NCBI RefSeq assembly: GCF_025273655.1
Contig: NZ_CP045921.1
Span: forward strand, 900,001-932,000
DNA length: 32,000 nucleotides
Direction: 5' to 3'
Source: Candidatus Saccharimonadota bacterium
GTDB lineage: Bacteria; Patescibacteriota; Saccharimonadia; Saccharimonadales; Saccharimonadaceae
Positions 941 to 29,481 of this stretch are shown piece after piece; position 1 is the stretch's first letter; each line of letters starts with the position of its first letter. The notes beneath the pieces are model-generated. The model ran no database searches, had not been told where the DNA came from, and saw nothing but the letters and a program-made list of their open reading frames with translations. The translations under genes and the position numbers were made by a program.

Positions 941-1014
941 AGGGACCACTGGGGCTTGAACCCAGGACACCCTGCTTAAAAGGCAGGTGCTCTAACCAGC
1001 TGAGCTATGGTCCC
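938..1014 (-). tRNA. tRNA-Lys (anticodon UUU), CCA encoded
   Basis: The reverse complement folds as a cloverleaf: GGGACCA/TGGTCCC acceptor, GCTC/GAGC D stem, CCTGC-CTTTTAA-GCAGG anticodon arm (TTT), CTGGG-TTCAAGC-CCCAG T arm, discriminator T, then CCA. Confidence 0.93.
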
Positions 1015-1085: not shown

Positions 1086-1577
1086 TCAATGTTTTGCGTG
1101 ATGCTCGTCTTTTTTGCCGCCACTCGATCGGGCATGCATGATATCTACTACCGCCCCAGCTAGTGCTCCCGTGAGGATAATCTGCTGATACTGCACGAGA
1201 AAGTCAAAGACTTGCTTGCCCGGACCCATCAACACTAGCGTATATTGCAGTGCATCGAGGCTGAATACTACCGCCAGCACAGCATAGAGGAGCGATCCAA
1301 TCAATCGCCCGCGCTTCGTCTTGTACGTCGGCCCACCAAATAGCAGTACCACCGACGGCAACAAAATCACCGCCAGTGTTGCAAGTGTCACAGGCGACAC
1401 CATCTCTAGCTCAATACCGCTATTACTCACGAGATCAGCGATGCTCGTTTCCCATAGCTTGCTCAGTACATACCCAGCTGCCAACGCCAGACCTAGTACA
1501 CCAAAGCGCCGCTTCGTCATGTAGGCAAATACAAATAGCAGTAGTACAATTGCGCCGACAATCACCGCCACTTCCAT
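1086..1577 (-). CDS. Hypothetical integral membrane protein (about 4-5 TM helices)
   Basis: 163-aa ORF made of hydrophobic helices. Its start lies 2 nt after the stop of the upstream DUF192 gene, which suggests an operon. Confidence 0.75.
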   Translation of the reverse strand: MEVAVIVGAIVLLLFVFAYMTKRRFGVLGLALAAGYVLSKLWETSIADLVSNSGIELEMVSPVTLATLAVILLPSVVLLFGGPTYKTKRGRLIGSLLYAVLAVVFSLDALQYTLVLMGPGKQVFDFLVQYQQIILTGALAGAVVDIMHARSSGGKKDEHHAKH

Positions 1578-1578
1578 G

Positions 1579-2055
1579 CTAGCCGCCGTACTCGAAATTA
1601 ACTATCTTACCGGGCGAGATATTGTATTTTGTCACCGCTCCAGCAGGTAGAATCAGCACATAGCGAGACTTGCCGCCGGGCTTGTACGTGCTTGTCGACG
1701 AAGGACGTGCGTCTTTGGCTACATACGCTACTTTTTTGCCTTCCGAAATCCATGCGATATCGACAGAGAACTTATTGCCTTGTGTGCGAATCGGCCACTC
1801 ACCACTATAATCGTAGACCATCAATAGCGCCTGATCATCCGACATTGTACCAAGACCCGTCACACCAGCACTACGCCGATCTTCGGTATCCGCTACGTCA
1901 GCACGAAACGTCTTAGCTCCCACCGACACATCCGTCGCACCGAGTGACTCGGGCCAAAACTTCCAGGCAACAAACAATACTAGCGCGCCTACGACAAGCA
2001 TGACGCCGACCCAGACGAGATTATGCTCAGCATGACTGCGCGCACCGTATTCCAT
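1579..2055 (-). CDS. DUF192 family protein with N-terminal membrane anchor
   Basis: The pattern GLG..S..QALLMVYD....PIRTQGNKFSVDIAWIS..GKVAYV...YVLILPAGAV...ISPGKIV matches the DUF192 consensus (GLM..GMLF..W.MKNT..PLDI.F.D...YVLE..aG). Confidence 0.8.
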   Translation of the reverse strand: MEYGARSHAEHNLVWVGVMLVVGALVLFVAWKFWPESLGATDVSVGAKTFRADVADTEDRRSAGVTGLGTMSDDQALLMVYDYSGEWPIRTQGNKFSVDIAWISEGKKVAYVAKDARPSSTSTYKPGGKSRYVLILPAGAVTKYNISPGKIVNFEYGG

Positions 2056-2087: not shown

Positions 2088-2993
2088 CTATGCGCCGACT
2101 TTGTCTTTTTTCGGTCGACGCTTGGCGTTGCGTTCGACATATTCAATGATCTTAGTTGCTACGTCCCGACTGGTGACTGCCTCTGGTGTCTTGAGGCTAG
2201 CAGATGAATTTACTTCAAGCACTAGGGGGCCCCGACCACTACGCATCATATCGACTCCACACACAGGAAGCCCCATAGCCTTAGCGGCTTTGATGGCCGT
2301 CTTCTTTTCTTCATCTGTCAGCTTGACCGGCACTCCTACGCCACCTTGGTGCGTATTGCTACGAAAATCGTCGTCGAGAGACTGACGTTTGATACTAGCA
2401 ACCACACGACCACCCACCACTAGTGCACGGATATCTTCACCCGCAGATTCTTTAACAAATTCTTGGACCAAGAAGTTCACGCCCTCCACATAAAATGCCT
2501 GCATTACTGCTTTGGCTGCCTTGGTCGTCTCTGCGAGCACTACGCCGTTACCATGTGTGCCACGTGCCACTTTGATGATCAGCGGTGTGCCGCCCGCAAG
2601 TGAGACCACGTCATCGAAATTGGCTGTCTCGCGCGCAAACACCGTCTTTGGTATTCCTACGCCAGCGCGTGCCATGATCTGATATGCACGCAACTTGTCC
2701 CGTGAACGTACGATGGCGATTGAGCTGGCCGTAGTAAATGCGCCCTGATGCTCAAACTGACGCACAATTGCGGTTCCATACTTGGTATAGCTTTGCGCAA
2801 TACGTGGAATAATTGCATCGAAATGATCCAGTGAACGGCCCTTGTAACGCACAACTGGCTGATTCTTTTCAATCGCCACATAACACTTAGCGTAATTAAT
2901 CACTTCTACCTCATGTCCACGGGCTACTGCGACCTCTTTGAGGCGTTTTGTGGAGTAATTTGCGCCGCCTTTCGACAGAATCGCTATCTTCAT
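2088..2993 (-). CDS. rimK: RimK-type ATP-grasp alpha-L-glutamate ligase
   Basis: 301 aa with typical RimK features end to end: MKIAILS..., IPRI, SRDKLRAYQ, PLIIKV.RGTHGNGVVL, FLVQEF, GEDIRALVVGGRVVA, FRSNTHQGG, CGVDM...GPLVLEVNSS. Coupled to the upstream gene by an ATGA overlap (2990-2993). Confidence 0.92.
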   Translation of the reverse strand: MKIAILSKGGANYSTKRLKEVAVARGHEVEVINYAKCYVAIEKNQPVVRYKGRSLDHFDAIIPRIAQSYTKYGTAIVRQFEHQGAFTTASSIAIVRSRDKLRAYQIMARAGVGIPKTVFARETANFDDVVSLAGGTPLIIKVARGTHGNGVVLAETTKAAKAVMQAFYVEGVNFLVQEFVKESAGEDIRALVVGGRVVASIKRQSLDDDFRSNTHQGGVGVPVKLTDEEKKTAIKAAKAMGLPVCGVDMMRSGRGPLVLEVNSSASLKTPEAVTSRDVATKIIEYVERNAKRRPKKDKVGA

Positions 2994-3487
2994 GAATCCC
3001 GCCCTTCTTCTTCATCGTTTGGAAAGTCTATATTGTACTGCTGTTTTAATTCTATTCGGTTGAGACTTGTTTCAGCCGAATCTACAAGAAACCGGTGATT
3101 GAGTAATTTGCGACCAAGTAGTACCGGGTAGATTTTTTTCGAGCGATCGGCCAGTGTGAATCTCGCATGGAACACCTTTGGCCCCAGCTTTACTTTGAGC
3201 TTTACCTCATAGCGCTGCTCCCGGTGCCCAAAAGAGTTGGATACCCATACAGTCGCGAACTCTTCGGCGGTGACCCGATATGCCATCGTACCACACACAG
3301 GATGTCCACCCAAGAGGTCGAAACTCAAAACGCCGTCGTCATTTAATACGATATTGTCAGCATGCACAGCAGACCGATACGCACCTGTATCGGTTTTTGC
3401 GGGTATCTTCACTGGCGCCGTACCGACAAAAGTCAGTAGTTCGGACCGGCCGATGATAACTTTGTGAAAATCATGCTTGGTAGCCAT
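2990..3487 (-). CDS. RimB-like putative ATP-dependent zinc protease (DUF785, retropepsin-like)
   Basis: IPAKTDTGAYRSAVHA matches the AKIDTGA.tSslHA motif of PF05618. The gene sits immediately upstream of rimK and is translationally coupled to it, as in rimABK-type operons. Confidence 0.8.
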   Translation of the reverse strand: MATKHDFHKVIIGRSELLTFVGTAPVKIPAKTDTGAYRSAVHADNIVLNDDGVLSFDLLGGHPVCGTMAYRVTAEEFATVWVSNSFGHREQRYEVKLKVKLGPKVFHARFTLADRSKKIYPVLLGRKLLNHRFLVDSAETSLNRIELKQQYNIDFPNDEEEGRDS

Positions 3488-3494
3488 ACACTGT

Positions 3495-3523
3495 ATTATG
3501 AATAAGATATTTTAATTAGACAA
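3495..3523 (-). promoter_or_regulatory. Sigma70-like promoter for the rimB-like/rimK operon, apparently leaderless
   Basis: Minus strand reads TTGTCT, 17 nt, CATAAT, 7 nt, ATG(3487). No SD sequence is present. Confidence 0.5.
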
Positions 3524-3524
3524 C

Positions 3525-3553
3525 TTGAATATATTAACATAATTTTGTATAAT
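3525..3553 (+). promoter_or_regulatory. Near-consensus sigma70 promoter for the ATP-grasp gene at 3561, apparently leaderless
   Basis: TTGAAT (3525-3530), exact 17-nt spacer, TATAAT (3548-3553), 7 nt, ATG(3561). No SD sequence is present. Confidence 0.6.
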
Positions 3554-3560
3554 TATCAAT

Positions 3561-4790
3561 ATGACACACGTGCTCGTTGTAGGTAAGAAATTCTCCGCTC
3601 TCGCAGACTATCTTGTCGCTCACGAGTACACATATACCGTGCTTCAGGATCGGCAAGCTACTAAGTTTCCAGACAAACGATTCAAGCACCGAGTTGTAGC
3701 AGATTTCTCGTCACTTGAATCACTTTTTGCTACTGTTGATACGCTCCAGACCACGCCAAATCTTGTACTTGCTACCTATGAAAACTACATACTACCTGCT
3801 GCACATATCGCCGCGCACCTTGGCTTACCAGGTATACCAGCAACCGCAGCCGAGGCCTGTACCGACAAGTTCCTGATGCGCTCACTTTTTGCCCAGGCTC
3901 CCGAAAAAATCAGTCCCGACTTTGCTATCGTCCGCACCGAAGACGACCTGCGTGCGTTTGCTGCGAACCACACGTTTCCTCTCATCCTCAAACCCGCCAA
4001 TCTTGCCAAAAGCCTTCTGGTCACAAAAAGCAACTCGCTTGATGAATTGCTTGCAAACTATCATATAGCGACTCGGCTACTAAATTCGACCTACGCTAAA
4101 TACGCGCCAAATCGTACTCCATCACTTATCGTTGAAGAATTCCTGGCAGGGAGCGTGCATTCCGTCGATGCCTTTGTTGACGGCACAGGCACGCCGCACA
4201 TCCTCGATGCAGTCGTTGACTATCAGACGGGCTACGACATCGGCTATGACGATAATTTTCACTACAGCCGCCTGTTGCCGAGTGCACTTTCGACAAAAGA
4301 TCAAACGGCGCTGCGGCGCTGCGCTGACATCGGCATTCGTGCGCTTGGCATGAAGCACACTCCCGCCCACGTAGAAATCATTATGACAGCCGACGGACCG
4401 CGCATCGTTGAGATTGGTGCGCGCAACGGCGGCTACCGCGAACGCATGCACCGGCTCGCTAATGGCATCGATATTACTGGAGCAGCCTTGCAGACTGCCG
4501 CGGGTGGAATCCCAACGGTTGCATCGTCTTATACATATAGCTGTGCCGTTCTTGAATTATTTCCACACTCAGAAGGATCATTTGTTGGAATCACACATCT
4601 CGAAGAGCTACAACAACTCCCATCACTCAATTACCTGAGTATTAAAACTCAGCCTGGAGATACCGTCGGCAAAGCTTCAGGCGGACATAAAGCTGTTGCG
4701 GTTATCATACTATCACATGAAAATCCTGCACAATTTGCCGCTGACAAGCACTTCGTTGATACACACTGCGCCATACAGACAGAAGGCTAA
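3561..4790 (+). CDS. ATP-grasp domain protein (L-amino-acid ligase / carboxylate-amine ligase-like)
   Basis: 409 aa with ATP-grasp hallmarks: PLILKPANLAKS, IVEEFLAGSVHSVD, HVEIIMTADGPRIVEIGARNGG. Confidence 0.8.
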   Translation: MTHVLVVGKKFSALADYLVAHEYTYTVLQDRQATKFPDKRFKHRVVADFSSLESLFATVDTLQTTPNLVLATYENYILPAAHIAAHLGLPGIPATAAEACTDKFLMRSLFAQAPEKISPDFAIVRTEDDLRAFAANHTFPLILKPANLAKSLLVTKSNSLDELLANYHIATRLLNSTYAKYAPNRTPSLIVEEFLAGSVHSVDAFVDGTGTPHILDAVVDYQTGYDIGYDDNFHYSRLLPSALSTKDQTALRRCADIGIRALGMKHTPAHVEIIMTADGPRIVEIGARNGGYRERMHRLANGIDITGAALQTAAGGIPTVASSYTYSCAVLELFPHSEGSFVGITHLEELQQLPSLNYLSIKTQPGDTVGKASGGHKAVAVIILSHENPAQFAADKHFVDTHCAIQTEG

Positions 4791-5809
4791 GTTATGACAA
4801 TAGTAGCAAGATAGTCAACATACGCAGCCACAGCCCCCCTAGGCTCGCCCTGCGTAGGAAGATCGTGAATCGCAAGCGAAGGACATTTGTTAATCTCGAT
4901 AATAACTGCGTCTAGTTCATCTCGGGTCATCTCGGGTGTTGGTACTTTGGCTGTCATGTAGTCGACGCCACTTACATATAGCTCCGCAGTCATCGATACT
5001 GTTTCCGCCTCTTTGATCATCCATTTCGGTAGGTCATCCGTCACGTCCACCAGCTCACCACCCGCACCGTAATTTGCTACACCAAGTACTGTCACCTCTT
5101 GGCCACCTTCTGGAGTAGTCTCGTAGATATTACCGAGAAATTGAGCGGCTCGGTCCACATCTATGCGAGCCAAAGGTGCATAGTAGGGTTCGCCACGCCT
5201 AGGAGAGGCATTTTCAATTTCTACCAGCTCACGCACAGTATGCGTGCCATCACCCCACACTCTTGCGGGTACACGCCATATAGCCGCCTGATACTTGCCA
5301 TCGATACATGCAATACGTATATCATATGATGTTTCATGCCGATACTGCGCTTGAACAATTACCCGTTGAGCTGATTTTGTAAATGTCACAGCGTACGTTA
5401 TAGCGTCGTCTAATTGCTGCTCGGTCGTAACACCCACCGTAATACCCTTGCCGTGCCCACCATCAAATGGCTTCACTACAACACTCCCCACTTGGCTCAG
5501 AAGCTGCTGTGCTTCACCTTTCCCGTATTTATTGCTTACAGATACCGACGCCAATTGTCGCACGCCTATAGAGTCAAGCAGTGCATATGTCGCAAGCTTG
5601 TCATTTGCGACATATGCCGCTGCATACGAAGTCGTGGGTGGGGTGGTACTAAAAATCCGCAACCGTTTATTGTCGCCTCTGTCGATGTAACAGATGGGTG
5701 AACCCTGATACGCAAGCCATGCGCGCCAGCCTCGACGCTTGAATTCTCTCTGCAGCAACAACATCCCCCTGTTCAGCTCGCTCTCTTTGATAGTTTGTAG
5801 ATCAATCAT
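4787..5809 (-). CDS. ATP-grasp ligase resembling the N-terminal domain of cyanophycin synthetase
   Basis: 340 aa with VVVKPFDGGHGKGITVGV, a YDIRI... segment, ANYGAGGE, IIEINKCPSL and a tail PTQGEPRGAVAAYVDYL like the P..G.pR.v...i.d.LF seen in CphA-type enzymes. ATGA overlap with the upstream RimK-like gene (5806-5809). Confidence 0.7.
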   Translation of the reverse strand: MIDLQTIKESELNRGMLLLQREFKRRGWRAWLAYQGSPICYIDRGDNKRLRIFSTTPPTTSYAAAYVANDKLATYALLDSIGVRQLASVSVSNKYGKGEAQQLLSQVGSVVVKPFDGGHGKGITVGVTTEQQLDDAITYAVTFTKSAQRVIVQAQYRHETSYDIRIACIDGKYQAAIWRVPARVWGDGTHTVRELVEIENASPRRGEPYYAPLARIDVDRAAQFLGNIYETTPEGGQEVTVLGVANYGAGGELVDVTDDLPKWMIKEAETVSMTAELYVSGVDYMTAKVPTPEMTRDELDAVIIEINKCPSLAIHDLPTQGEPRGAVAAYVDYLATIVIT

Positions 5810-6633
5810 GCATTCGCCTCGTTCATGATATGTTCAATTATTTCTTTTGCGATATCGACTCCAGTAATCTCACTGATAGCATATCCGGGAGACGGGTTCA
5901 CCTCTAATACCAAAGGGCCTTCATCGCTATCGATAATATCCACTCCGGCATACGGTAATTCAAGCGCATCAACCGCAGCGATAGCTATCTCTTTTTCTTG
6001 TGAGCTTGGTTCATACGTACTCGCTGCCGCACCTAGGTGAATATTTGCACGAAATTCCCCTGGTTGAGCGATCCGGCGCATAGCAGCCACGCACCGGGAT
6101 CCGCAGACAATAACACGCTTATCCGCACCCCTTGACTCCTCTATGTATTCTTGATACAAGCATTCATTTTCTGCATCCAAGCACTTTGCAACAGCTGTAT
6201 TGTACTCATCTATTGTTTTGACAAGGGTCACACCCAACCCCTTATTCCCTACAGCAGCTTTCACTACCCCTGGAAGCCATGGTGGAGGCAATACTTTTGT
6301 CACGATTTCCGACTTAGGCATTGGCACGTGAGCCCGTGACAGTATAGTATAGGAATCACATTTGCTAAACGATTCTAGACTCCGTAGCAAAGACTGTTTA
6401 TGGGACCGGTTGGTAAGATGCATCGCAATATTTTTATATAATTCTACCGTTTTAGGGCTGCGGCGGTAGATAACAGCATCAGCGGCATCAATTATACTGG
6501 CCGCGTTTTTGTCATCAGCAAGGCATACGAGAGGCTCATAGCCCAAACGCCGTGCTGTAGTTGCGAGTAAGTTTGACCCCGTGCTGGCGGCATTGGCAGT
6601 GACAATTGCGAGTTTTTTTGTGTTTTGAGTCAT
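5806..6633 (-). CDS. RimK-family ATP-grasp ligase (second copy)
   Basis: 275 aa with GADKRVIVCGSRCVAAMRR....GEFRANIHLGA, AGVDIIDSDEGPLVLEVNPSPG. Confidence 0.8.
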   Translation of the reverse strand: MTQNTKKLAIVTANAASTGSNLLATTARRLGYEPLVCLADDKNAASIIDAADAVIYRRSPKTVELYKNIAMHLTNRSHKQSLLRSLESFSKCDSYTILSRAHVPMPKSEIVTKVLPPPWLPGVVKAAVGNKGLGVTLVKTIDEYNTAVAKCLDAENECLYQEYIEESRGADKRVIVCGSRCVAAMRRIAQPGEFRANIHLGAAASTYEPSSQEKEIAIAAVDALELPYAGVDIIDSDEGPLVLEVNPSPGYAISEITGVDIAKEIIEHIMNEANA

Positions 6634-6640
6634 ATGTATT

Positions 6641-6669
6641 ATTATACTATATTTTAGTCATATTATCAA
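6641..6669 (-). promoter_or_regulatory. Consensus-like promoter for the 6633-4787 ATP-grasp operon, apparently leaderless
   Basis: Minus strand reads TTGATA, 17 nt, TATAAT, 7 nt, ATG(6633). No SD sequence is present. Confidence 0.6.
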
Positions 6670-6678
6670 TATTATCCG

Positions 6679-6707
6679 TTGACCCCTCCCCCTTAGGGTG
6701 CTACTAT
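6679..6707 (+). promoter_or_regulatory. Promoter for the GNAT gene, very short leader
   Basis: TTGACC (6679-6684), 17 nt, TACTAT (6702-6707), 9 nt, ATG(6717). Confidence 0.5.
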
Positions 6708-6716
6708 ACGAGCACC

Positions 6717-7202
6717 ATGGACATGGCATCCCGTTTCAGAACACTTGCGCATACAGACTTAGAAGAACTTGTGCAAAATTTTCCTCAACCCCAGCCAGAT
6801 GCGCATGCTAAGCGACTTGCCCATCAAGATGCGGGCGACTACTCATATTTCTGCACAGAACAAGATGGAATAATCGCCGCCATTCAGCTTGTGCGCTGGA
6901 TTGGACCTCGTAAGCAGGAAGACCGAATACTCTCCCAGCTACCAGAGATAGGGAGCTTGTATGTGCGGCCGGAATATCGCGGCAAAGGCCTTGGTGGTGC
7001 ACTTATCGCTCATTCCGAAGATACTGTATACAAGCAGGGCTACACCGGCGTCGGAGCAATCATCAAAGACTCAAATGCTATTTCTACACACATGCATCTT
7101 AGGCGCGGCTACCGGCCCATTGGCGTCGCTACTCGCACAGATCAAGACCCCGATGAGCCTCGAACTTACTACATCAAGCAATTTCCTCAAACAGATTTTT
7201 GA
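6717..7202 (+). CDS. GNAT family N-acetyltransferase
   Basis: LYVRPEYRGKGLGGALI is the acetyl-CoA binding Q/RxxGxG/A motif and RRGYRP lies at the C-terminus. I chose the ATG at 6717 (MDMASRF...). The track start at 6606 would run through both promoters and the neighbouring start codon. Confidence 0.85.
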   Translation: MDMASRFRTLAHTDLEELVQNFPQPQPDAHAKRLAHQDAGDYSYFCTEQDGIIAAIQLVRWIGPRKQEDRILSQLPEIGSLYVRPEYRGKGLGGALIAHSEDTVYKQGYTGVGAIIKDSNAISTHMHLRRGYRPIGVATRTDQDPDEPRTYYIKQFPQTDF

Positions 7203-8502
7203 GCTTTTGTGGCATAGGGCTATGCCGCTCTACATGTTCGCGCTCCCCTGCTACAAATGGATTAAACTTCGCACTCATCACCCAGCTCAATGATTCGTCG
7301 ACGATATCGTGTGCTGAGATATAGTTGAGAAAGCGCCAGGCTTCGTTGAGCCCATAGAAGTAGTCGATGTCTTTGCGATGCGATATACCTTCGTCTACGT
7401 CCACCATACCAGCAAAATCACGACGCAAAAATGACACCGCTGTCGCATAGGCTTTCTCTTCGGGCTCTTCTTTCTTTTCAGCGACATTTTTGAGAAACGA
7501 CATCTGGAAGAATAATTTGAAAATCTCGTCTTTTGGTACATTTTCCGTACTGGCAAGCCCGGCAGCTAGGTAATGTTCAAGTCCACGAGTGGGTGTATGT
7601 TCTCCCGTGAGACATTGCTCAAACGCAATCATCAATGCTTCTTCGAACCGCGCATATGCTGCGGTACCGTATTGGCCAAGCTCATCGCCATTCTCTTCGG
7701 CAAGTGCTGAACGAAGTGCGTGACCACCTTCATGGATCATGAGTCCCTGCAGCGTATCTTTCGAAGAGCGTCGTTGCGACGAGACAACAATTTGTTTGTC
7801 CGTTGCACGGGTTGTGACTGAAGATTTTTTACGTTGCACTACGTGTGCACGCCATCCAGATTTGTGAAGTGTAGGCGTTGAGCCTATTAATTTCTGAAAA
7901 TATTCCACGATCTGCTGAGCATCGTATTGAGACTCATGGCCATCGTTTTCAATTTCATCTACTATGTCACCGAAGTTATCTTGTAGCCAATCACCGACCA
8001 TCTCGAATGTCGCATGAGTCGGTTGTGCGAGTGTATCGCTTGAGACATCTGCACCCCATGCATCAAGTTTTGCAACAACCTCGCTGCGTTGAATCTGCCA
8101 TTCTGGTGGTAGTGTGAGTTCAGCGAGCTGCGTCCGCTTGAGGCTTACCGCTGCACGAAATAGCTCAGGATCATAGTATCCATATAGCTCTTCTTGAAGT
8201 TCTGCGATTTCATCGCTCACATCTTCCTCGTATAGCATTTGCTCGGCGATACATGACGCCAGCGTAATCTCGGCCATATGCCTCCTGGCAATTAGCCGTT
8301 CTTGTTCGTTCAAGCTTGTATCTTGATATAGTAAATCCCACTGCTCTCGAGCGGCTGTCGCATCTGCGGCGATCTGCTCCAAAGCACTGTCTGTCAGGGT
8401 AATGTCGACCGAGCCATCCTGCGCGATGAACACATCGCTATCAAGCCGCCTACCTGGCGCAAAGCTATACTCTGCTCTCGCTGTATATAAATTCTTGTTC
8501 AT
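7174..8502 (-). CDS. HExxH zinc metallopeptidase, divergent DUF1704/MATCAP-like
   Basis: 442 aa. Contains GLMIHEGGHALRS (HExxH), then G..YARFEEALMIAFEQ and RKDIDYFYGLNEAWRF. These are collinear by eye with the HEIGSH...GYEKGNEGRAFLREQ...LKDTVYLEGNVRCW blocks of the 15581 gene. Confidence 0.6.
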   Translation of the reverse strand: MNKNLYTARAEYSFAPGRRLDSDVFIAQDGSVDITLTDSALEQIAADATAAREQWDLLYQDTSLNEQERLIARRHMAEITLASCIAEQMLYEEDVSDEIAELQEELYGYYDPELFRAAVSLKRTQLAELTLPPEWQIQRSEVVAKLDAWGADVSSDTLAQPTHATFEMVGDWLQDNFGDIVDEIENDGHESQYDAQQIVEYFQKLIGSTPTLHKSGWRAHVVQRKKSSVTTRATDKQIVVSSQRRSSKDTLQGLMIHEGGHALRSALAEENGDELGQYGTAAYARFEEALMIAFEQCLTGEHTPTRGLEHYLAAGLASTENVPKDEIFKLFFQMSFLKNVAEKKEEPEEKAYATAVSFLRRDFAGMVDVDEGISHRKDIDYFYGLNEAWRFLNYISAHDIVDESLSWVMSAKFNPFVAGEREHVERHSPMPQKLKNLFEEIA

Positions 8503-8577: not shown

Positions 8578-9171
8578 TCACGATGGGTTGGCCGGAGGAT
8601 TCTGCGGCGACACCTGTGCGGCAGCCGCCTTTCGCTTCGCCTCCTCGGCTTCGCGCTTCTGAATCTTATTCGACTCGGGAAGCAGGTCCTTCGCTCCGCT
8701 ACGACGTGCCCGAAAATCAGTTGGCGTACCGCTTTCCTCGTCGCGCTTCTTCTTGGCCTCTGCGTCCTTACGCTTGCGCTCCGCTTCTAGGTCGGCCTTG
8801 GCAGCTTGCTCTCGGCCATCCTGCTCACGCCAGCGTGTAGCGGTAGCGCGCATGTCACCATCGGTCATCGACAGCGGCCGCTGCTCTACCTCGAGTCGGC
8901 CACTCAGTGTGGCCGTGTGCCGAGCAGCTCGACCGTCAGCCGAACCCCTGACCCACCAGGTCAGCAACATCATGACAATCACAGCGATGAGCCCCGCCAG
9001 CATCAGCCAGAAGAAAAACCCAACCCACATGCACGCAACACACAGAATAGCTATCACCACGAAAATGGCGATCAGCCCCATGCCGATGTTGTCAATCTCC
9101 CGGTCAATCCACCGGGGCGGCTTATCCTCTGCCGACGAGTATTCGTGTCCCAATTCTTTGCCGTGACTCAT
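8578..9171 (-). CDS. Hypothetical membrane protein with two TM helices and a K/E/A/R-rich tail
   Basis: 197-aa ORF with a strong SD (AAGGAGGTG) and a TATAAT box upstream in 9172-9238. Hydrophobic core IAIFVVIAILCVACMWVGFFFWLMLAGLIAVIVMMLL. Confidence 0.7.
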   Translation of the reverse strand: MSHGKELGHEYSSAEDKPPRWIDREIDNIGMGLIAIFVVIAILCVACMWVGFFFWLMLAGLIAVIVMMLLTWWVRGSADGRAARHTATLSGRLEVEQRPLSMTDGDMRATATRWREQDGREQAAKADLEAERKRKDAEAKKKRDEESGTPTDFRARRSGAKDLLPESNKIQKREAEEAKRKAAAAQVSPQNPPANPS

Positions 9172-15518: not shown

Positions 15519-15580
15519 AGTACCACTGTAGCACAAGCGTAAACGTTTTGGTGGTATTTTTGGCAGAGTATACTAGCTAT

Positions 15581-16909
15581 ATGAAGAAGCTTGATGCCAC
15601 CTGGTTTCCGACATACGCCCATCTCCTCCATATTGTTGGTGAGACATACGATCTATTGGATCCCTCGCCATCAATTTTGGCAACACAACGTGCCAAATTC
15701 GAAGCATCTCATTACACTATAAGCCCAGACTTAGTCGCTGATAAACCCCACATCTCGACACTCAAAACGGCCCGAGAAGACGCTGAGCAGTTGCGCTCGC
15801 GCATTATGACAGAAGAGACGATTACACTCGTGCGCGATGCCTACATACCGGCGCTCGACTCGCTACTCCTCAATATTCAGCTCATCATGGCTGGCGCAAC
15901 TGGGGATATGGAGTCATACCGTAGTGCTAGCGAGCAACTTTATGGCCAGCCGAACCGCACCATCTTCGACGCAGCATGCGCTTGGATTCGCGACGATGCA
16001 CTCGCTACCGCCATGGGTCACTCACCACTACTTACAAAGTTGAGAGATGATGTGCTTGAGGCAATTCCTCACATTACTGCAGACCATCATATACTCGTCC
16101 CCTCCGAAGCTACTTTTGCCGCCGTTAAACAAAGTCATGCCGACTACTACATGAAGTTGTTTGGCTCAGACGGCATACCGAACGAACCATATATAGACGA
16201 AGATACGGGTAACGAGATCTGCCGCCGTGTCTTAGCTAACATCGGCTCAGACTATACACTTGCGCCGTCCGACAACAATCTCTGGGCTATCTTGCCAAGC
16301 CACAAGCAAGTTGTCTACCCTACAGGTTACCGACTCGACCGCGATGAGTTCGTCGGCATCGTCTGCCATGAGATCGGCAGTCACGTGCTCGAATCGGTCA
16401 ACGGCAGCAACTCCCCGCTCCAACTCCTGAGTTCCGGACTCGCCGGGTACGAAAAAGGCAATGAAGGCCGAGCATTTCTACGCGAACAGATTGTCTACCC
16501 GCATGAATGCACGTTTCTCCGCCAATTCTCGTGGGAATATATCGTATTGTTGCATATATCCGTGAGCTTTGCTGCCGGTCTCAACGGGCAGCCATACGAT
16601 TTCGCTCGTCTGTACGACGTGTTATATAAACTCTATTATTTCTGGCGCGAACGCCGCGAGCCCAGGGCAACCAACAACGAAGCCTTTGCGCGCCAAGAAG
16701 CCTGGTACCAGGCCGTGCGTATCCTCAAAGGAACACTAGGAAATGGTTCGGCCGCGTATTTGAAAGATACTGTATACCTGGAGGGTAACGTTCGCTGCTG
16801 GCAGCTAGCTACCGATGACCCTTCCGTAATTTTACTGGGCGATCTGGGTAAATTCGACCTTACCAACCAGTTTCATCGCGCATTCGCTCTTAGCCTTGCC
16901 CCATATTAG
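15581..16909 (+). CDS. DUF1704 family (QEGLA-motif / MATCAP-like) putative metallocarboxypeptidase
   Basis: VCHEIGSHVLESVNG....GLAGYEKGNEGRAFLREQ...LKDTVYLEG matches the DUF1704 pattern HEIgtH..NG...GL.gY..tQEGLA. Start set at the ATG at 15581, which has TATACT 6 nt upstream. Confidence 0.75.
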   Translation: MKKLDATWFPTYAHLLHIVGETYDLLDPSPSILATQRAKFEASHYTISPDLVADKPHISTLKTAREDAEQLRSRIMTEETITLVRDAYIPALDSLLLNIQLIMAGATGDMESYRSASEQLYGQPNRTIFDAACAWIRDDALATAMGHSPLLTKLRDDVLEAIPHITADHHILVPSEATFAAVKQSHADYYMKLFGSDGIPNEPYIDEDTGNEICRRVLANIGSDYTLAPSDNNLWAILPSHKQVVYPTGYRLDRDEFVGIVCHEIGSHVLESVNGSNSPLQLLSSGLAGYEKGNEGRAFLREQIVYPHECTFLRQFSWEYIVLLHISVSFAAGLNGQPYDFARLYDVLYKLYYFWRERREPRATNNEAFARQEAWYQAVRILKGTLGNGSAAYLKDTVYLEGNVRCWQLATDDPSVILLGDLGKFDLTNQFHRAFALSLAPY

Positions 16910-20089: not shown

Positions 20090-20965
20090 ATGAAGCGAGG
20101 GGTTATCACGACATGTTGCTTAGCTCTAGGACTAAGCTTTCTTGTGAGTGTGCCAGCTCATGCCGACACGAGTGGTCTGTGGATGTCTTCGTCTCGCCAG
20201 AATCTCACAAGCAAAGCAGGTGTCGGTACAAGCGCACATATTAAAATAGCGAACAAGACAGACGCCCCAATGGACGTCCAGCTCTCCGTAAAATCTTTTA
20301 ACGTTGACTCTCAGACGCGCGCCATTACCTTCGTCGATCCTCGCGAAGATTGGATTACTCCAGATGTCCCCCGGCTAGAGTTAGCTCCCACAGAAGAACA
20401 GGATATCAACTACCGCATTGCTATTCCTGTGACCGCCGACGAAAAAGAGTACCATTTCGCACTCATAGCCAGCACAGTTGTTGGTAGTGATCAAAACGCC
20501 AAGACACTTCGCGTTGCCTCACTTCTGTACCTTTCTGTAGATGGAGGACATTTGACTCGCGCGGGTGATATCACCTCGGCACACGTGCCCTCGTTTGCGT
20601 TTGGTACTACTATCCCCTATACATTTGCTATCAAAAACACCGGAGATATCCATCTGGAGCTCCAGTCGAACGTCCAACTTCAGGGCCAAGCCTGGAACTC
20701 ATTAACAACCGCCCGGCCAGCGGTCGTACTACCTGGCGAATCGCGCACCATAAGTGATGCCGTGACCTCACCCTCCCTACCGGGCATCTATACGCTGCGC
20801 TATGGCTACACAGACGACACAACTGGAGCCAAAACACTCGAAGTCGTCCCCGTTATATATCTTCCTATATGGGCCGTAGGCGTACTTGCGAGCCTACTGC
20901 TTGCCAGCGTCTGGCTTTGGCAAAGACGCCGCTCAGGTAAGATTAGCGCTACGTCCGACCAATAG
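20090..20965 (+). CDS. Cell-surface protein, DUF916/DUF3324-like, with signal peptide and C-terminal TM anchor
   Basis: Signal peptide ending VPAHA, two beta-sandwich-like halves, then a C-terminal IWAVGVLASLLLASVWLW-QRRR anchor. This architecture matches the partners of WxL proteins in Gram-positive bacteria. The call is by pattern only. Confidence 0.45.
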   Translation: MKRGVITTCCLALGLSFLVSVPAHADTSGLWMSSSRQNLTSKAGVGTSAHIKIANKTDAPMDVQLSVKSFNVDSQTRAITFVDPREDWITPDVPRLELAPTEEQDINYRIAIPVTADEKEYHFALIASTVVGSDQNAKTLRVASLLYLSVDGGHLTRAGDITSAHVPSFAFGTTIPYTFAIKNTGDIHLELQSNVQLQGQAWNSLTTARPAVVLPGESRTISDAVTSPSLPGIYTLRYGYTDDTTGAKTLEVVPVIYLPIWAVGVLASLLLASVWLWQRRRSGKISATSDQ

Positions 20966-21509
20966 CAGTGTAAGTTACCCCGACACTATACGTACCCGAG
21001 CTCTTGGTGATGTCAATTAGCGCACCATAAGTCATTGCTGTCGGGCTACCGTTTTTAAAAGGCCCGGTACCGCTTGCAATAAGCTGCTGACTCGTCGTCA
21101 TACCGATAAAGTTCGTGGTAGAGCCGGTCGTATTGAATCCCCATGTGTTAGTGCTCAGGGCCCCGGCTGTCGTATTGCTACTCGCCGGTATGGTGTCGGT
21201 GCCATTACTCATATTTGCCGTCGTCGTGCCATTTGCATAGAGGTCGTACCCAACAACATCAAGTGACGTTACAGTAATAGTATGGCCGCCCGTACCACTA
21301 AACGTGCCTCCGCTAGGCGTCATAGCGATATCGGCACTACTATTACTCAATCCGATTGAGATGCTTGTCTGACTGCCAAATGGCACATCTGCCCCAAACT
21401 TGCCCACGCCAAACGGCTGTGCTACCGCTACCTGCTGCCACAATGCAGCGCCGATCGTCAACGCGACCGCTACGGTGAGATGACTGAGCGTGACCCTCGG
21501 TATTTTCAT
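20949..21509 (-). CDS. Secreted beta-rich surface protein (WxL-like / pilin-like)
   Basis: 186 aa with a signal peptide ending VAVAQP and a G/T/S/N-rich beta-strand pattern ending GTYSVGVTYTAIG. Convergent with the DUF916-like gene, with a 17-nt overlap. Confidence 0.4.
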   Translation of the reverse strand: MKIPRVTLSHLTVAVALTIGAALWQQVAVAQPFGVGKFGADVPFGSQTSISIGLSNSSADIAMTPSGGTFSGTGGHTITVTSLDVVGYDLYANGTTTANMSNGTDTIPASSNTTAGALSTNTWGFNTTGSTTNFIGMTTSQQLIASGTGPFKNGSPTAMTYGALIDITKSSGTYSVGVTYTAIGRT

Positions 21510-21592
21510 ATATTACTTAGTATAACAAAGTACGGGTTGTGCTCATGCTTTGGGTTTTGTATACTGTGTGCAGACAGAGGGAGAAATAAACA

Positions 21593-21793
21593 TTGAAAGT
21601 ATTCGATGAGTTGTTGCAGCGCGAAGTGACGCGTGGTGAGTTTCTAAAAATGATTGGTATCGCAGCAGTAAGTGCATTTGGTGTGACAAATTTTATCGCT
21701 AAGCTCTCGCATACATCTAAAGTTATCGAGCAAGGTTCACAACCACATCGTATTGCCAGCCATGGGTTTGGCAGTCGTAAGTTTGGTGAATAA
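21593..21793 (+). CDS. Small hypothetical protein with a Tat-like but RR-less signal (TRGEFLKMIGIAAVSAFG)
   Basis: 66-aa ORF with a TTG start, SD GAGGGAG 9 nt upstream, TATACT box at 21560-21565 and a terminator downstream. It competes with a non-protein-like antisense ORF. Confidence 0.45.
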   Translation: MKVFDELLQREVTRGEFLKMIGIAAVSAFGVTNFIAKLSHTSKVIEQGSQPHRIASHGFGSRKFGE

Positions 21794-21862
21794 CACCATG
21801 CTTTTGTGGTGGCGTCAAAATAGCCTATACTGAGAAGCATATGCTTCACCACAAAGCATCCC

Positions 21863-21885
21863 AGGCAACCACTTGCCTACTTTTT
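21863..21885 (+). terminator. Rho-independent terminator candidate
   Basis: AGGCAA-CCAC-TTGCCT stem-loop followed by ACTTTTT. Confidence 0.5.
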
Positions 21886-21941
21886 GCGCACGACGCGATG
21901 GGTAGTCTGTTTGCTAATGCGCATGAGGGGAGCTCCCTCTA

Positions 21942-24071
21942 GTGGCAGACCAGCGCCTCCCAATAGTAAATAGTGACGATGGCACCTGGGGTGATCTGTT
22001 ACGTCAATACCTGAAAAAGGAACACTTCGACGACGGCACGAATAATGCAGCCAACGGTGGCCACCAAAACGTGACTATCCGCGGCGGCACGGCAGGAGCC
22101 GGTGGTGCACCGCTAAAGTTCAGTTCCGGCACACTTCTCACTACACCCGAGGTAGGCGCGGTTGAATTCGCTGGTGACAACTTATATGTCACACAGACAT
22201 CTGGCACAACTCGCAAAAAAGTAGCGCTCTACGACGATTCGAGCGGTGTAACTGGCGATCTCTATTATCGCAATAGCGGTGGCTACTTCACACGCCTCGG
22301 CATCGGTACTAGCAACCAGATACTTGCTGTGTCTGGTGGCCTTCCGAGCTGGCAGACACCGACCGCGCAGTCAACCACTTTCAGTGACACTGCGTTTACA
22401 TTGCAAGATGACGGTGATGCAACCAAACAAGCCAAGTTCGAGCTGAGCGGCATCAGTGCTAGCACAACTCGCACGTATACACTTCCAAACGCCAATACTA
22501 CAGTAGTCGGCACAGACACAACACAGACATTGACCAACAAGACGCTCACAAGCCCCACGCTCACCACTCCACGTTTTGCTTCGGGTGGCTATATTGCAGA
22601 CAACAATGGCAACGAACAGATTGTGTTCACAACTACGGCTTCCGCGGTCAACGAGCTCAATGTCAGCAACGCCGCTACAGGCGGGTCGCCCCAGATTGCC
22701 GCCCAAGGTGGAGACACAAATGTCAATCTTAATCTCGTGTCGAAAGGTACTGGCCGTATACAAGCAAACGGAGTAAATATCCCGACAGCAAGCTCGACTG
22801 ACACATTAACCAATAAATCTATAGATGGTAGCACAAATACACTCTCGAACATCTCCTGGGCAGCAGTTACAAAGCCAACTTACATAGCCGCCGGCACCAC
22901 AGTCAAAAATGCATTGAGCGCCGTCAATATGTATCCTTTAGTCGGCTCAGCTGATGTGGGTAATGGTCAGATGTTTGGCGCGTTTGCAGCCAATGCACTA
23001 TATAGTCATCCGGAGTCCGAATGGTTTGTGCCGATACCGCACGCCTACAACGACATTGCGTATAACAACAACCGTGGCGGTACGGTTAAAGTCCTCCTGA
23101 ACGGCTCTACTTATGCTGCCGATGGCAACAATGCTTCCCCATTCTTTACCCCAGATGCCACCTATGAAACAGTCACTGCCTACTCGTCTACAAGTGATAC
23201 TGTCTCCTATGAAATCTCTCTTTACAGAACATTTTACTGGGGTATTAGGTTTGGTATTCAACAAACTGACTGGTGTCGTGGACAAAACGTAATGTTTGAA
23301 GCATACAACGGTACATCATGGTCAACCATACTAAACACCACGAATCAGACTACCGGACTCACTTGGAGCTCGGGCGATGCTGGGTCTACCGGTATCACTA
23401 AGCTACGCGTGTCGCTCACAAACTTTAACGTATCATCTTCTGTTGGTGCGCGTATCTCTCAGGTGTTTTTGCTTGGGTTTGACTCGCAACTTCTATCGAG
23501 CACTTTTCTTCCCAGAGGCGGCGGCCAACTCTTTGGCGAACTAGGTACGCCGGCCATATGGACTGATCGCATAAAGGATCGCACAACGGGTACGGGGATC
23601 ATAGATTTTTACAGTAATGCATCCGCCGTCAACTACCTTCAAATTCAGAATCGCGCCACAGGAGCAGGGCCAAGTATATATGCACAGGGTTCCGACACAA
23701 ATATTGACATAAATCTCATGCCAAAAGGTACGGGCAATGTACTTGTAAATGGCTCCGGTCTTCTCACCGCGAACTCTACTGCGACGCTTACCAATAAAAC
23801 TATTGATGCAACCGCTAACACTATTACAAATATAGGCACCTCGTCCCTATCCGACAGCTCGGTGACATCTGCAAAGATAGCAGACAACAGCATTGTGAAT
23901 GCAGATATCAACGCGTCAGCCGCCATCGCACTCTCCAAACTTGCCGCTGGCTACGTACAGGGATCAGTCAACGGCACTTCAACAACTACGACTGTCTGGC
24001 GCGGCACGCAGGCACAGTACGATGCGATTGGCACAAAAGACAACAATACCCTCTATTTTATATCAGGATAA
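21942..24071 (+). CDS. Phage-tail-fibre-like modular protein 1 (709 aa) with an inserted discoidin/CBM-like domain
   Basis: GTG start and no signal peptide. Recurrent TLTNKT(L/I) spacers. Duplicated shaft module ASAVN..N.ATG..P.I.AQG.DTN..LNL..KGTG. C-terminal VWRGTQAQYDAIGTKDNNTLYFI, typical of phage fibre proteins. Confidence 0.8.
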   Translation: MADQRLPIVNSDDGTWGDLLRQYLKKEHFDDGTNNAANGGHQNVTIRGGTAGAGGAPLKFSSGTLLTTPEVGAVEFAGDNLYVTQTSGTTRKKVALYDDSSGVTGDLYYRNSGGYFTRLGIGTSNQILAVSGGLPSWQTPTAQSTTFSDTAFTLQDDGDATKQAKFELSGISASTTRTYTLPNANTTVVGTDTTQTLTNKTLTSPTLTTPRFASGGYIADNNGNEQIVFTTTASAVNELNVSNAATGGSPQIAAQGGDTNVNLNLVSKGTGRIQANGVNIPTASSTDTLTNKSIDGSTNTLSNISWAAVTKPTYIAAGTTVKNALSAVNMYPLVGSADVGNGQMFGAFAANALYSHPESEWFVPIPHAYNDIAYNNNRGGTVKVLLNGSTYAADGNNASPFFTPDATYETVTAYSSTSDTVSYEISLYRTFYWGIRFGIQQTDWCRGQNVMFEAYNGTSWSTILNTTNQTTGLTWSSGDAGSTGITKLRVSLTNFNVSSSVGARISQVFLLGFDSQLLSSTFLPRGGGQLFGELGTPAIWTDRIKDRTTGTGIIDFYSNASAVNYLQIQNRATGAGPSIYAQGSDTNIDINLMPKGTGNVLVNGSGLLTANSTATLTNKTIDATANTITNIGTSSLSDSSVTSAKIADNSIVNADINASAAIALSKLAAGYVQGSVNGTSTTTTVWRGTQAQYDAIGTKDNNTLYFISG

Positions 24072-24081
24072 GGAGTCCTAG

Positions 24082-24768
24082 ATGTCGATTAAACTTGGTA
24101 CAAATGATATCTCGCAGGTCTCCCCAGGCTCAATTCGTCTCGGGGCAAGCTCCTTAGACCGGGTATACAACGGAACAAAGCTTGTGTGGGAGCGAGGCAC
24201 ACAGACAATCGACACACTTGATTCGCTTGGATCTTTCACCCAGACATCAACCGGCAGTGGAATTGGCGCGTCTGGCGGCGAGGCGCTTTGGAATGGCACA
24301 ACCGATGGTACAGCCACTGCCCTGTACAACACTTCAGCTTTAACAAACAATCAATATGTAGCCGGAATCGCAGGGAGCTACATGAACGCTAGCCGCGCAT
24401 CGGGACTAATTTTCCACTGTGATGCCTCCTTAACGAGTTGGTATGGAGTATTATTCGAAAGTGACCGTATAGCATTGGTTTCAAATACCGGTCGCTGGTT
24501 GCAAAACATAGGTGGCTCTCAGGATGTGAGTTATGCCGAGTGGAGTGGCACCGTCTCAAGTGGCGATACGCTCTCGGCATGGAATATAGGCGAAAATTTT
24601 TATGTTGCCCAAAACGGGACTATTCGTATATCAACAACAATTAGTGGAGCAAATATAGGCGCCACTAAACGTCGCCAAGGCATTGGCCTATACCGCACGT
24701 CATTTGCATCATCATGTCGTATATCTCAGTGGTGGGGTGGCGACGCGGGTGCGTGGGGTAAAATCTAA
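24082..24768 (+). CDS. Jelly-roll (ConA/LamG-like) fibre-associated protein, paralog of 30039-30632
   Basis: SD AGGAG 6 nt upstream. Shares TNQY..., G(L/I)I(F/L)HCD.S, SGD....WNIG(E)NF..A(Q/V)NGT, QGIGLYR.SF and W(W/R)GGDAGA(W/Y)GK(I/L) with the 30039 product. Confidence 0.75.
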   Translation: MSIKLGTNDISQVSPGSIRLGASSLDRVYNGTKLVWERGTQTIDTLDSLGSFTQTSTGSGIGASGGEALWNGTTDGTATALYNTSALTNNQYVAGIAGSYMNASRASGLIFHCDASLTSWYGVLFESDRIALVSNTGRWLQNIGGSQDVSYAEWSGTVSSGDTLSAWNIGENFYVAQNGTIRISTTISGANIGATKRRQGIGLYRTSFASSCRISQWWGGDAGAWGKI

Positions 24769-24943
24769 GCCCATAGGCTCTCAGATACCCTCAAGCCTAC
24801 CTATTTTTCGCAATAGAGCTTATACTATAAGAGCCTATGCTACAGTACAGCAGAGCAAATACCACTAGTGTAGTGGCAATCTTTGCCCGTGTCATCATAT
24901 ATGGGGGTGTATTACGTAGTATCTTCAGAGGAGAATTCTCCTA

Positions 24944-27476: not shown

Positions 27477-27489
27477 GTCTATAGATAGC

Positions 27490-28242
27490 ATGGCACTCAC
27501 ATACTCTCTTGTCTATAATGGCGCCGAAAGCTCGACCACACTCGGCCGTCACACCTATGATGCAAATTTCGGCACCATCAGTACAGGCACGCTACTAGTA
27601 ATGTGCGTGACCGCAACCAAAAGCCCCAGCGGAGCATCAAATATACTTTCTATTGCCCAACAATCCGGCACCGCAACAATTTCATCTGTGACAACTATCG
27701 ATAATACAACAGCAAGTTCGACAGATCAGGCTGCACTCAGCATATTCTACGCGACGGTGACGGGCGGCGGAACTTTGACGATGCGTGCGTCCGATAACAT
27801 GAATACATACGGCCTCGGTGTCATAGCTATCGGTTTCACCGGCTATGATACATCCACCCCCATACTAGGAGTCGTCAAGAACAACGCGCTAAGTATCGAT
27901 GGTGCTGCGAGCCTAACACTCAGTGCTACACCGACCGTCAACGATTACGTAGTCGGGTTTGTCAACTCAGACACTGACACCGGTAGTGGCAAAGGTGTTG
28001 ACCCTGGCTCCGGATTTACAGAAGTGGCAGAAGTGGGTGGCGCTAGCGACTATATCATGACCGAGGCTCAGGTGCGCACCGGCAGCACCTCAACAAACGT
28101 GCCATGGGCAGACGTACGGACATCTGGCGCTCCAGCAACCTATACAACTATAGGTGGTGCATTTATAGTTAAGGCTACCCCACCAGTCAGTACTATTACC
28201 GCCATCTCAACAGTCTCAGGAATTTCATCAATCACATTATAA
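27490..28242 (+). CDS. Hypothetical beta-rich protein within the fibre array
   Basis: 250-aa ORF, co-oriented, 13 nt after the fibre 2 stop. S/T/G-rich with no recognisable motif and no obvious SD. Confidence 0.6.
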   Translation: MALTYSLVYNGAESSTTLGRHTYDANFGTISTGTLLVMCVTATKSPSGASNILSIAQQSGTATISSVTTIDNTTASSTDQAALSIFYATVTGGGTLTMRASDNMNTYGLGVIAIGFTGYDTSTPILGVVKNNALSIDGAASLTLSATPTVNDYVVGFVNSDTDTGSGKGVDPGSGFTEVAEVGGASDYIMTEAQVRTGSTSTNVPWADVRTSGAPATYTTIGGAFIVKATPPVSTITAISTVSGISSITL

Positions 28243-28255
28243 TGAGGATATAAGC

Positions 28256-29437: not shown

Positions 29438-29481
29438 ATACTACAAGAAATCAATATTTATCAATTCACGCTATAATAAGA

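Follow-up and report, generated by a model that had tools for sequence, protein, structure and literature searches.

RimK, an ATP-grasp ligase, adds alpha-glutamates to ribosomal protein S6 at the C-terminal end, and its partner RimB is an endopeptidase with a DTG active site that cleaves runs of at least six glutamates on S6 (RpsF) and stimulates RimK (PMC11957791). In cyanophycin synthetase (CphA), the ATP-grasp (G) domain lengthens its substrate at the C-terminal backbone carboxylate (PMC9427784), and the MATCAP/TMCP enzymes are carboxypeptidases that trim acidic C-terminal tails (PMC10499314). Here we analyse a gene island in which relatives of all three lie side by side, at 2088-8502 of a stretch of 32,000 nucleotides from a Candidatus Saccharimonadota bacterium (contig NZ_CP045921.1, positions 900,001 to 932,000), referred to as a whole as the window. 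Homologues of its genes carry the names Candidatus Saccharibacteria or Saccharimonadales, and two public assemblies contain identical contigs. The island comprises seven intact genes, with the catalytic motifs intact in all seven proteins (Table 1): RimK and a RimB-like peptidase, a stand-alone homologue of the cyanophycin-synthetase ATP-grasp (G) domain, named "CphG-like" for this reason, a second RimK-family ligase (RimK2), an ATP-grasp resembling L-amino-acid ligases (LAL), a GNAT acyltransferase and a MATCAP-like peptidase (peptidase 1). It amounts to a RimK/RimB system to which a second ligase/peptidase pair has been added, in a lineage for which no such system had been described, and the window holds an unusually large version of an island found across that lineage. 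The island probably makes and trims short acidic peptide tails.

Like the RimABK system of Pseudomonas and Escherichia coli, the island has a RimK of equivalog level with a DTG retropepsin-type peptidase gene immediately upstream and coupled to it, and RimB-RimK hybrid genes occur in related loci, as is known for rimBK. Unlike RimABK, it is without RimA, the cyclic di-GMP phosphodiesterase, its RimB-like protein falls far under the RimB cutoff, and the pair is accompanied by between one and three additional ATP-grasp ligases and by peptidases of a second class; S6 is the acceptor there, whereas here this role of S6 is only putative. The CphG-like ligase shares a homologous ATP-grasp domain with CphA1/CphA2, GshAB (GshF) and Ngg (E=2e-49), but it stands alone, and it is partnered not by cyanophycinase but by RimB, RimK and MATCAP-like genes. 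The island peptidase is paired genomically with ATP-grasp ligases as MATCAP is paired functionally with tubulin tyrosine ligase (TTL), although no microtubules are involved in the island system. Neighbourhoods of ATP-grasp ligases, peptidases and GNATs were reportedly predicted by Iyer, Abhiman, Burroughs and Aravind in 2009 (Mol Biosyst) to make peptide tags or small peptides. In the literature searched, we found no prior description of a Saccharibacteria-wide CphG/RimB/RimK core with MATCAP-like partners.

A core of three genes is conserved across Saccharibacteria

For comparison we used 76 loci from one-genome-per-species collections, picked with a profile of the CphG-like protein and fetched together with flanking DNA; 71 of them are from Saccharibacteria, all other than the window. 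Counts among these 71 loci describe the neighbours of CphG-like genes and are no measure of how widespread the island is in Saccharibacteria as a whole. RimB-like genes were found with a profile from a single phmmer round, an iterated version that drifted to 211 matches being discarded.

The CphG-like, RimB-like and RimK genes form an adjacent trio in 57-59 of the 71 loci, in at least five gene orders, and neither DnaK nor DnaJ lies in the DNA fetched for some of these loci. We distinguished 35 architectures, the commonest being CphG>RimB>RimK (10 loci). Coupling is tight: RimB>RimK is adjacent in 43 loci and RimK2>CphG in seven, both with a median gap of -4 nt, the same median gap separates tandem CphG>CphG pairs, and MATCAP>CphG is adjacent and tightly coupled in 12 loci. 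In another lineage (L053, L034), GNAT>MATCAP>CphG>RimB>RimK form a co-directional operon with near-zero gaps. Fusions also occur: L049 joins CphG to RimB, L014 and L046 each join RimB to a RimK-like ATP-grasp domain, and a Paceibacterota locus joins ATPgrasp_ST to RimB. Since the trio is kept together in several orders, with 4-nt overlaps and fusions, the island genes are functionally linked and not mere neighbours. What the analysis shows is which genes are present, the families to which they belong, that their catalytic motifs are intact and that they are linked in the genome.

The remaining families are less constant. RimK occurs in 59 of the 71 loci and the RimB-like peptidase in 57, followed by MATCAP-like peptidases (26), LAL-type ligases (20), second RimK-like ligases (14, in two subfamilies), GNATs (6), S51 peptidases (5) and ATP-grasp_3 proteins (3); the variable slots have been refilled repeatedly by ATP-grasp ligases, peptidases and GNATs. 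The S51 genes adjoin CphG on the opposite strand (L003, L005, L010, L012 and L013), and their products are as distant from cyanophycinase as from dipeptidase PepE, scoring far under the cutoffs of both. Four ligases, two peptidases and a GNAT within 2088-8502 make an architecture that is unique within the sample. The expectation of an earlier note on this DNA, that the genes would be co-conserved in related genomes, thus holds for the trio but not for the set of seven as a unit: LAL, RimK2, GNAT and MATCAP-like genes are variable accessories. Although Saccharibacterial genomes measure only about 1 Mb and encode few regulators, the core is kept in nearly every CphG-selected lineage sampled; Saccharibacteria keep diversifying it, and 6.4 kb is devoted to the island in this genome.

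Another class of Patescibacteria has a variant of the island without RimK, in a Candidatus Paceibacterota metagenome-assembled genome (MAG; L066, 4867-13759) with three CphG-like genes, two MATCAP-like genes and the ATPgrasp_ST-RimB fusion. Its three tandem CphG-like genes differ in the donor-site residue discussed below, and it encodes a RimK-like ATP-grasp with a tubulin-tyrosine-ligase Pfam match (33.5 bits versus 20.1).

The CphG-like ligase corresponds to a solitary cyanophycin-synthetase G domain

The CphG-like protein matches model TIGR02068 over positions 184-470 only, with 167.7 bits against a cutoff of 850. Structures of CphA1, CphA2 and GshAB match it at E=2e-49 to 4e-31, and in the HMMER alignment to CphA1 structure 7wac only G-domain residues 197-479 are covered. 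The protein is one G domain, without the N domain and without the M domain. The earlier note had called it CphA-N-domain-like; its relation to the CphA ATP-grasp stands, but the similarity is to the G domain (residues 162-487 of TeCphA1) and not to the structural N domain.

Residue roles in TeCphA1 are available from a cryo-EM study (PMC9427784). The catalytic His267, Arg309, Arg323 and Asn394 correspond to H119, R165, R179 and N246 of the CphG-like ligase, and among 80 family members encoded in related loci, 77-80 keep these four positions. Because they are conserved, its chemistry should be that of C-terminal carboxylate activation followed by amino-acid addition. By contrast, the substrate-specific residues are lost: Glu215, which binds the arginine side chain of the primer, and Arg458, which binds the alpha-carboxylate of the incoming aspartate (PMC9427784), are replaced by Y66 and A313 in the window. 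Over the 80 sequences the Arg458-equivalent donor-site position is hypervariable (Y28, G14, R6, A6, S5, T5 and others), and the Glu215-equivalent position is basic in 36. We therefore predict from the sequence that the CphG-like ligase activates a C-terminal carboxylate and adds one amino acid, that this amino acid differs between lineages and that the acceptor tends to be acidic.

A profile search of the full library returned 1,189 cluster representatives at E<=1e-30, many of them stand-alone proteins of 310-340 aa, and the stand-alone form is thus a sizeable unnamed family. Annotations of proteins of about 340 aa in Saccharibacteria as "cyanophycin synthetase" should not be taken to imply cyanophycin synthesis. 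The profile also caught long multi-domain CphA-like proteins of the actinobacterium Brevibacterium senegalense (L070 and L073; 864 aa in L073), outgroups outside this system, and some Brevibacterium copies have Arg323 and Asn394 replaced.

RimK and the RimB-like peptidase

The window RimK reaches the cutoff of the S6--L-glutamate ligase equivalog model NF007764 (336.3 bits versus 331) and matches PF08443 (181 bits) and PF18030. Its residues 1-291 align with residues 1-291 of structure 7qys (E=6e-91), and the solved RimK enzymes of Pseudomonas and E. coli align with it over its full length. No other gene of the island is as conserved: identity to other Saccharibacteria RimK proteins is 60-90%, and conservation among these genomes equals that of DnaK and DnaJ. 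Such a degree of conservation is in keeping with a macromolecular partner.

The RimB-like peptidase passes PF05618 (55.5 versus 27) and scores 57.1 with the RloA3 model (cutoff 210). It carries the motif KTDTGAY with D33, and D[TS]G is present in all 59 neighbouring homologues; the catalytic DTG aspartate of Pseudomonas fluorescens RimB is D31 (PMC11957791). The peptidase itself has an acidic C-terminus (...NDEEEGRDS in the window), and that of L051 (10382-10879) ends ...LDEEDME.

All open reading frames (ORFs) of the window and the loci were scanned for an acidic tail at the C-terminus or for an internal stretch of five or more glutamates, and no candidate acceptor was found. Apart from the L051 protein, the acidic-tail scan matched only aspartyl-tRNA synthetase in two gut Saccharibacteria (L038, 2034-3923, minus strand; L043, 1946-3748, minus strand), where the protein ends ...VIDEEEE or ...IEDEEE; RimB>RimK>CphG begins 4.6 and 4.8 kb away from these genes, which may be coincidence. 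The literature searched contained no report linking RimK with Saccharibacteria.

MATCAP-like peptidases

We class peptidase 1 as a distant member of the PF08014 superfamily and not as a MATCAP orthologue. It shares the gluzincin site and the downstream Glu-Glu ligand motif with MATCAP/TMCP (KIAA0895L) and the DUF1704/TIGR02421 "QEGLA" proteins. Its own PF08014 score (21.5) is under the cutoff of 27; two of its homologues carry a precomputed PF08014 match, and the island peptidases of L053 (50.6) and L068 (32.5) pass. H257, E258, H261, E287 and E288 are invariant in 17 homologues. With an AlphaFold2 (AF2) model (pLDDT 88.8), the best Foldseek matches were M3 oligopeptidases and human MATCAP, the M3 enzymes scoring equally well; the MATCAP chains 7z5g and 7z6s were matched with probability 0.96-1.00 but TM-scores of just 0.27-0.42, and identity is only 12-14%.

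The MATCAP/TMCP motif is defined as HExxxH with a downstream glutamate ligand, EEG (PMC10499314). Window peptidase 1 fails the HExxxH test, having HEGGH (HExxH), one residue shorter, whereas the downstream F-E-E (E287/E288) is kept. HEGGH is shared by its two closest relatives (87-91% identity), P0124 has HEIGH, and the other 13 of the 16 aligned homologues have HExxxH, as do nearly all MATCAP-like genes of other islands. Because HExxH recurs in the window copy and its relatives, the one-residue deletion in the active-site helix has been kept under selection.

The window encodes a second such protein, peptidase 2, with the motif HEIGSH, a TIGR02421 score of 52 bits and 25% identity to peptidase 1 around the active site. 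It lies outside the island, 7 kb away, between FAD-linked oxidase and HD-domain genes, and is a possible unlinked member of the system; in L039 the gene directly upstream of CphG is a homologue. Three of the fetched loci have the TrbL-like gene beside the island, and in one of them, L014, no MATCAP-like gene was detected elsewhere; for this reason peptidase 2 looks like a lineage-specific addition. A literature search on bacterial DUF1704/QEGLA/TIGR02421 proteins gave nothing useful.

Accessory ligases and the GNAT

The LAL-like ligase has the ATP-grasp_4 core and probably also the LAL C-terminal domain 2 of L-amino-acid ligases (BacD/YwfE, BL00235 and TabS-type), scoring 58.6 with PF13535 (cutoff 27) and 28.2 with LAL_C2, under its cutoff of 29.4. 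Its best matches in the PDB are L-amino-acid ligases and BacD (E=1e-14 to 5e-10), although it is only about 20-25% identical to them, lies outside any antibiotic biosynthesis cluster and reaches no NCBIfam equivalog cutoff. A homologue in matching position and orientation is found in 12 other loci. RimK2 is 30-35% identical to RimK and falls just short of TIGR00768 (137.4 versus 143.4).

The GNAT ORF is open from TTG 6606, and gene callers (L001/L002) start the gene at 6723. The protein scores 45.3 with PF00583 (cutoff 20.7), and the acetyl-CoA motif R-x-x-G-x-G is present as RGKGLG. An orthologue with 46% identity occurs in L035, in the same divergent GNAT<RimK2> layout as in the window, and five other islands contain a different, unrelated GNAT subfamily.

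Hidden Markov model (HMM) classification of each ATP-grasp protein bears out the family calls of the earlier note. Assignment of the ligases to ordinary housekeeping families (Ddl, GshB, PurD/PurK, CarB), which would have undone its proposal, is rejected, as none of the four reaches any of the curated NCBIfam cutoffs: the best scores were 64 bits with GshB models (cutoff 272-408), about 27 with Ddl (at least 243), 29 with PurK (327) and 38 with a CPSase-like model (218).

Possible functions of the island

We infer what each step does chemically, which peptidase goes with which ligase and what serves as acceptor. On this view the island would encode writers that use ATP and erasers that are proteases, both acting on short, acidic tails of alpha-linked amino acids at a C-terminal carboxylate. 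Two pairs, RimK/RimB and CphG-like/MATCAP-like, would build, cap, uncap and trim these tails. RimK would add alpha-L-glutamates, and the RimB-like retropepsin would shorten the oligo-glutamate and probably also activate RimK. The CphG-like ligase would convert the C-terminal backbone carboxylate to an acyl-phosphate and then attach one more amino acid, of lineage-dependent identity, the MATCAP-type metallocarboxypeptidase being its likely eraser. Among the extras of the window, RimK2, coupled to the CphG-like ligase, and the LAL-type ligase would act as accessory ligases, and the GNAT may block a free amino group.

We tentatively favour, with somewhat less than even confidence, a writer/eraser system acting on a protein C-terminus, with S6 as the default acceptor by homology to RimK and RimB. 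Tailing of S6 would adjust translation in a bacterium that has few regulators besides. With S6 or another protein as acceptor, the island would be the first system of several enzymes for C-terminal tailing outside eukaryotic tubulin, and a regulatory layer in episymbiotic bacteria. Several points weigh against this reading. No rpsF (S6) gene was found by tblastn with the E. coli and Bacillus subtilis proteins in the window or in L001-L078, nor was one found in the 10 kb past the right end of the window, and the RimB-like peptidase scores 45.9 with the NCBIfam RimB model (NF052261), far under its cutoff of 200. In seven Saccharibacteria loci CphG is accompanied by a co-directional LAL gene without RimB or RimK in the fetched DNA, which reached at most 10 kb to either side, contig ends permitting, and L066 has no RimK either; because such loci exist, the CphG-like ligase is not strictly dependent on a RimK product. 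LAL-type ligases and S51 peptidases usually act on free amino acids and dipeptides, and the choice of loci by their CphG-like gene limits what the counts say of the island at large. In addition, RimK also makes free poly-alpha-glutamate, stimulated by RimB (PMC11957791). This last activity speaks for an alternative that is itself doubtful and that we rank as nearly as likely as the protein acceptor: a free acidic oligo- or polypeptide, made and recycled as a poly-alpha-glutamate-based or cyanophycin-like reserve or protective polymer. LAL would then supply a dipeptide primer, the CphG-like ligase, RimK and RimK2 would elongate it C-terminally, the GNAT would cap its N-terminus, and the RimB-like, MATCAP-like and, elsewhere, S51 peptidases would mobilise it. 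An amino-acid store would suit an epibiont unable to synthesise amino acids, and would be an unrecognised reserve in such organisms; the closest characterised relatives of the CphG-like ligase are the polymerases CphA1 and CphA2 (7ta5, 8fxh), LAL-type ligases occur in 20 of the 71 loci and S51 proteins (cyanophycinase/PepE family) beside CphG in five, and the CphG+LAL pairs do without RimB and RimK. However, the DnaK-like conservation of RimK and its S6-ligase equivalog match suit a protein partner better, no Mur-ligase-like (M-domain) gene is present for side-chain decoration, the S51 proteins score far under the cyanophycinase and PepE cutoffs and are encoded on the opposite strand, and no exporter or granule-associated gene is evident.

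Other readings fit less well. Ngg combines a GNAT with a CphA-type ATP-grasp, and N-acetyl-aspartyl-glutamate is made by the GNAT NAT8L and the RimK-like RIMKLA/B; on the model of these products, N-acetylglutaminylglutamine amide and N-acetyl-aspartyl-glutamate, the GNAT could acylate an amino acid and the CphG-like ligase or RimK2 add the next residue or residues, giving a small N-acylated acidic di- or tripeptide as osmolyte or signal. The CphG-like ligase does match the ATP-grasp half of Ngg (TIGR03103, positions 281-528) at E=2e-35, the L053 homologue at 7e-43, two GNAT subfamilies were recruited to the island independently, and the GNAT is divergent from RimK2-CphG in the window and in L035. 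We nevertheless regard this as improbable, since a GNAT is present in just 6 of the 71 loci, no AsnO-type amidotransferase accompanies it, the score of 122.3 is far from the Ngg cutoff of 569, and the RimB-like endopeptidase and MATCAP-type peptidase are left unexplained. That general gene-order conservation in small genomes holds unrelated neighbours together is very improbable. The DnaK, DnaJ, DUF192 and 163-aa membrane-protein genes are indeed syntenic with the island in many loci, but the trio stays adjacent across at least five rearrangements, some of them without DnaJ or DnaK in the fetched DNA, 4-nt overlaps are frequent, fusions between island families are of three kinds, and ligases, peptidases and GNATs repeatedly take the variable slots; pure synteny is rejected owing to these rearrangements, fusions and gene coupling. 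Least probable of all, with hardly a chance of being right, is that the CphG-like protein is a genuine cyanophycin synthetase and the island serves cyanophycin metabolism. JGI labels several homologues "cyanophycin synthetase", the top HMM and PDB matches are to CphA1, and a 2026 preprint describes cyanophycin synthetase and S51 dipeptidase E in Saccharimonadia MAGs (10.64898/2026.09.16.751625). Against this, the 340-aa protein is a G domain alone, without the N domain and the arginine-adding M domain, reaches 167.7 bits of the 850 required and has Tyr for Glu215 and Ala for Arg458. The cyanophycin reading is largely refuted, and a genuine synthetase is rejected, on domain content and residues.

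Returning to the protein acceptor, both writer/eraser pairs might act on one acidic protein tail and so reprogram ribosomes post-translationally. In such a "C-terminal tail code", which we hold to be unlikely, RimK/RimB would set the length of the oligo-glutamate, and the CphG-like/MATCAP-type pair would add and remove a terminal cap residue, whose identity would vary between lineages because the donor-site residue is hypervariable. The code would mirror tubulin polyglutamylation and the TTL/MATCAP tyrosination cycle, with which it may share ancestry.

Gene organisation and neighbourhood

With arrowheads giving orientation, the island reads MATCAP> GNAT< RimK2> CphG> LAL< RimB> RimK>. All genes reported in the earlier note are present at their positions, their orientation does give five units, and both ATGA overlaps, RimB-like/RimK and RimK2/CphG-like, are real. 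Promoter-like hexamers precede RimK2, LAL, GNAT and RimB (Table 1), whereas a terminator scan gave no signal over background, and an Rfam scan of the window found only a tRNA and no riboswitch.

Table 1. Features of the island and its surroundings in the window (aa, amino acids; scores in bits).
Feature	Position	Strand	Basis or remark
tRNA gene	941-1014	-	Rfam RF00005, 70 bits
163-aa multi-pass membrane protein (mem163)	1086-1577	-	directly past DUF192
DUF192 gene	1579-2055	-	PF02643, 51.6 bits
RimK, alpha-L-glutamate ligase, 301 aa	2088-2993	-	NF007764, PF08443, PF18030
RimB-like retropepsin-type aspartic peptidase, 165 aa	2990-3487	-	PF05618, DTG motif
Divergent promoter-like sites, RimB/LAL gap	3495-3559	both	consensus matches only
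RimB side: three promoter-like sites	inside 3559-3495	-	consensus matches only
LAL side: TTGAAT-17-TATAAT	3525-3553	+	consensus match only
L-amino-acid-ligase-like ATP-grasp, 409 aa	3561-4790	+	PF13535, LAL_C2, PDB matches
CphG-like ATP-grasp, 340 aa	4787-5809	-	TIGR02068 part match, CphA1 structures
RimK-family ligase 2 (RimK2), 275 aa	5806-6633	-	PF08443, 138 bits
Divergent promoter-like sites, RimK2/GNAT gap	6641-6707	both	consensus matches only
RimK2 side: TTGATA-17-TATAAT (11/12)	6669-6641	-	consensus match only
GNAT side: TTGACC-17-TACTAT	6679-6707	+	consensus match only
GNAT acyltransferase, 159 aa	6723-7202	+	PF00583
MATCAP/DUF1704-type gluzincin peptidase 1, 442 aa	7174-8502	-	HEGGH + E287/E288
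197-aa membrane protein	8578-9171	-	between DnaJ and island
TrbL/VirB6-like membrane protein (TrbL_3), 885 aa	9239-11896	-	between DnaJ and island
MATCAP/DUF1704-type peptidase 2, 453 aa, HEIGSH	15548-16909	+	PF08014, 57.5 versus 27
Co-directional ORF run	20090-30632	+	almost without Pfam matches
709-aa protein, C-terminal "Phage_tail_C" domain	21942-24071		within the ORF run

Downstream of RimK, the DUF192 gene, whose product has an N-terminal membrane anchor, and the gene for the 163-aa membrane protein are recurrent neighbours: 18 loci have RimK>DUF192 adjacent, separated by a median of 24 nt, and 18 likewise have DUF192>mem163, mostly overlapping (gap about -1 nt). The RimB-RimK transcript may extend into both, and at the other end the peptidase 1 gene may be co-transcribed with the upstream membrane-protein gene. 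The tRNA gene lies just downstream of mem163.

The 885-aa TrbL/VirB6-like and 197-aa membrane proteins form an insertion between DnaJ and the island that is seen in L012, L014 and the lineage of the window only. Both are probably components of type IV secretion, and neither belongs to the island system. Farther along, the window contains the long ORF run with the "Phage_tail_C" protein, and past its right end an alpha/beta hydrolase gene is followed by grpE and hrcA.

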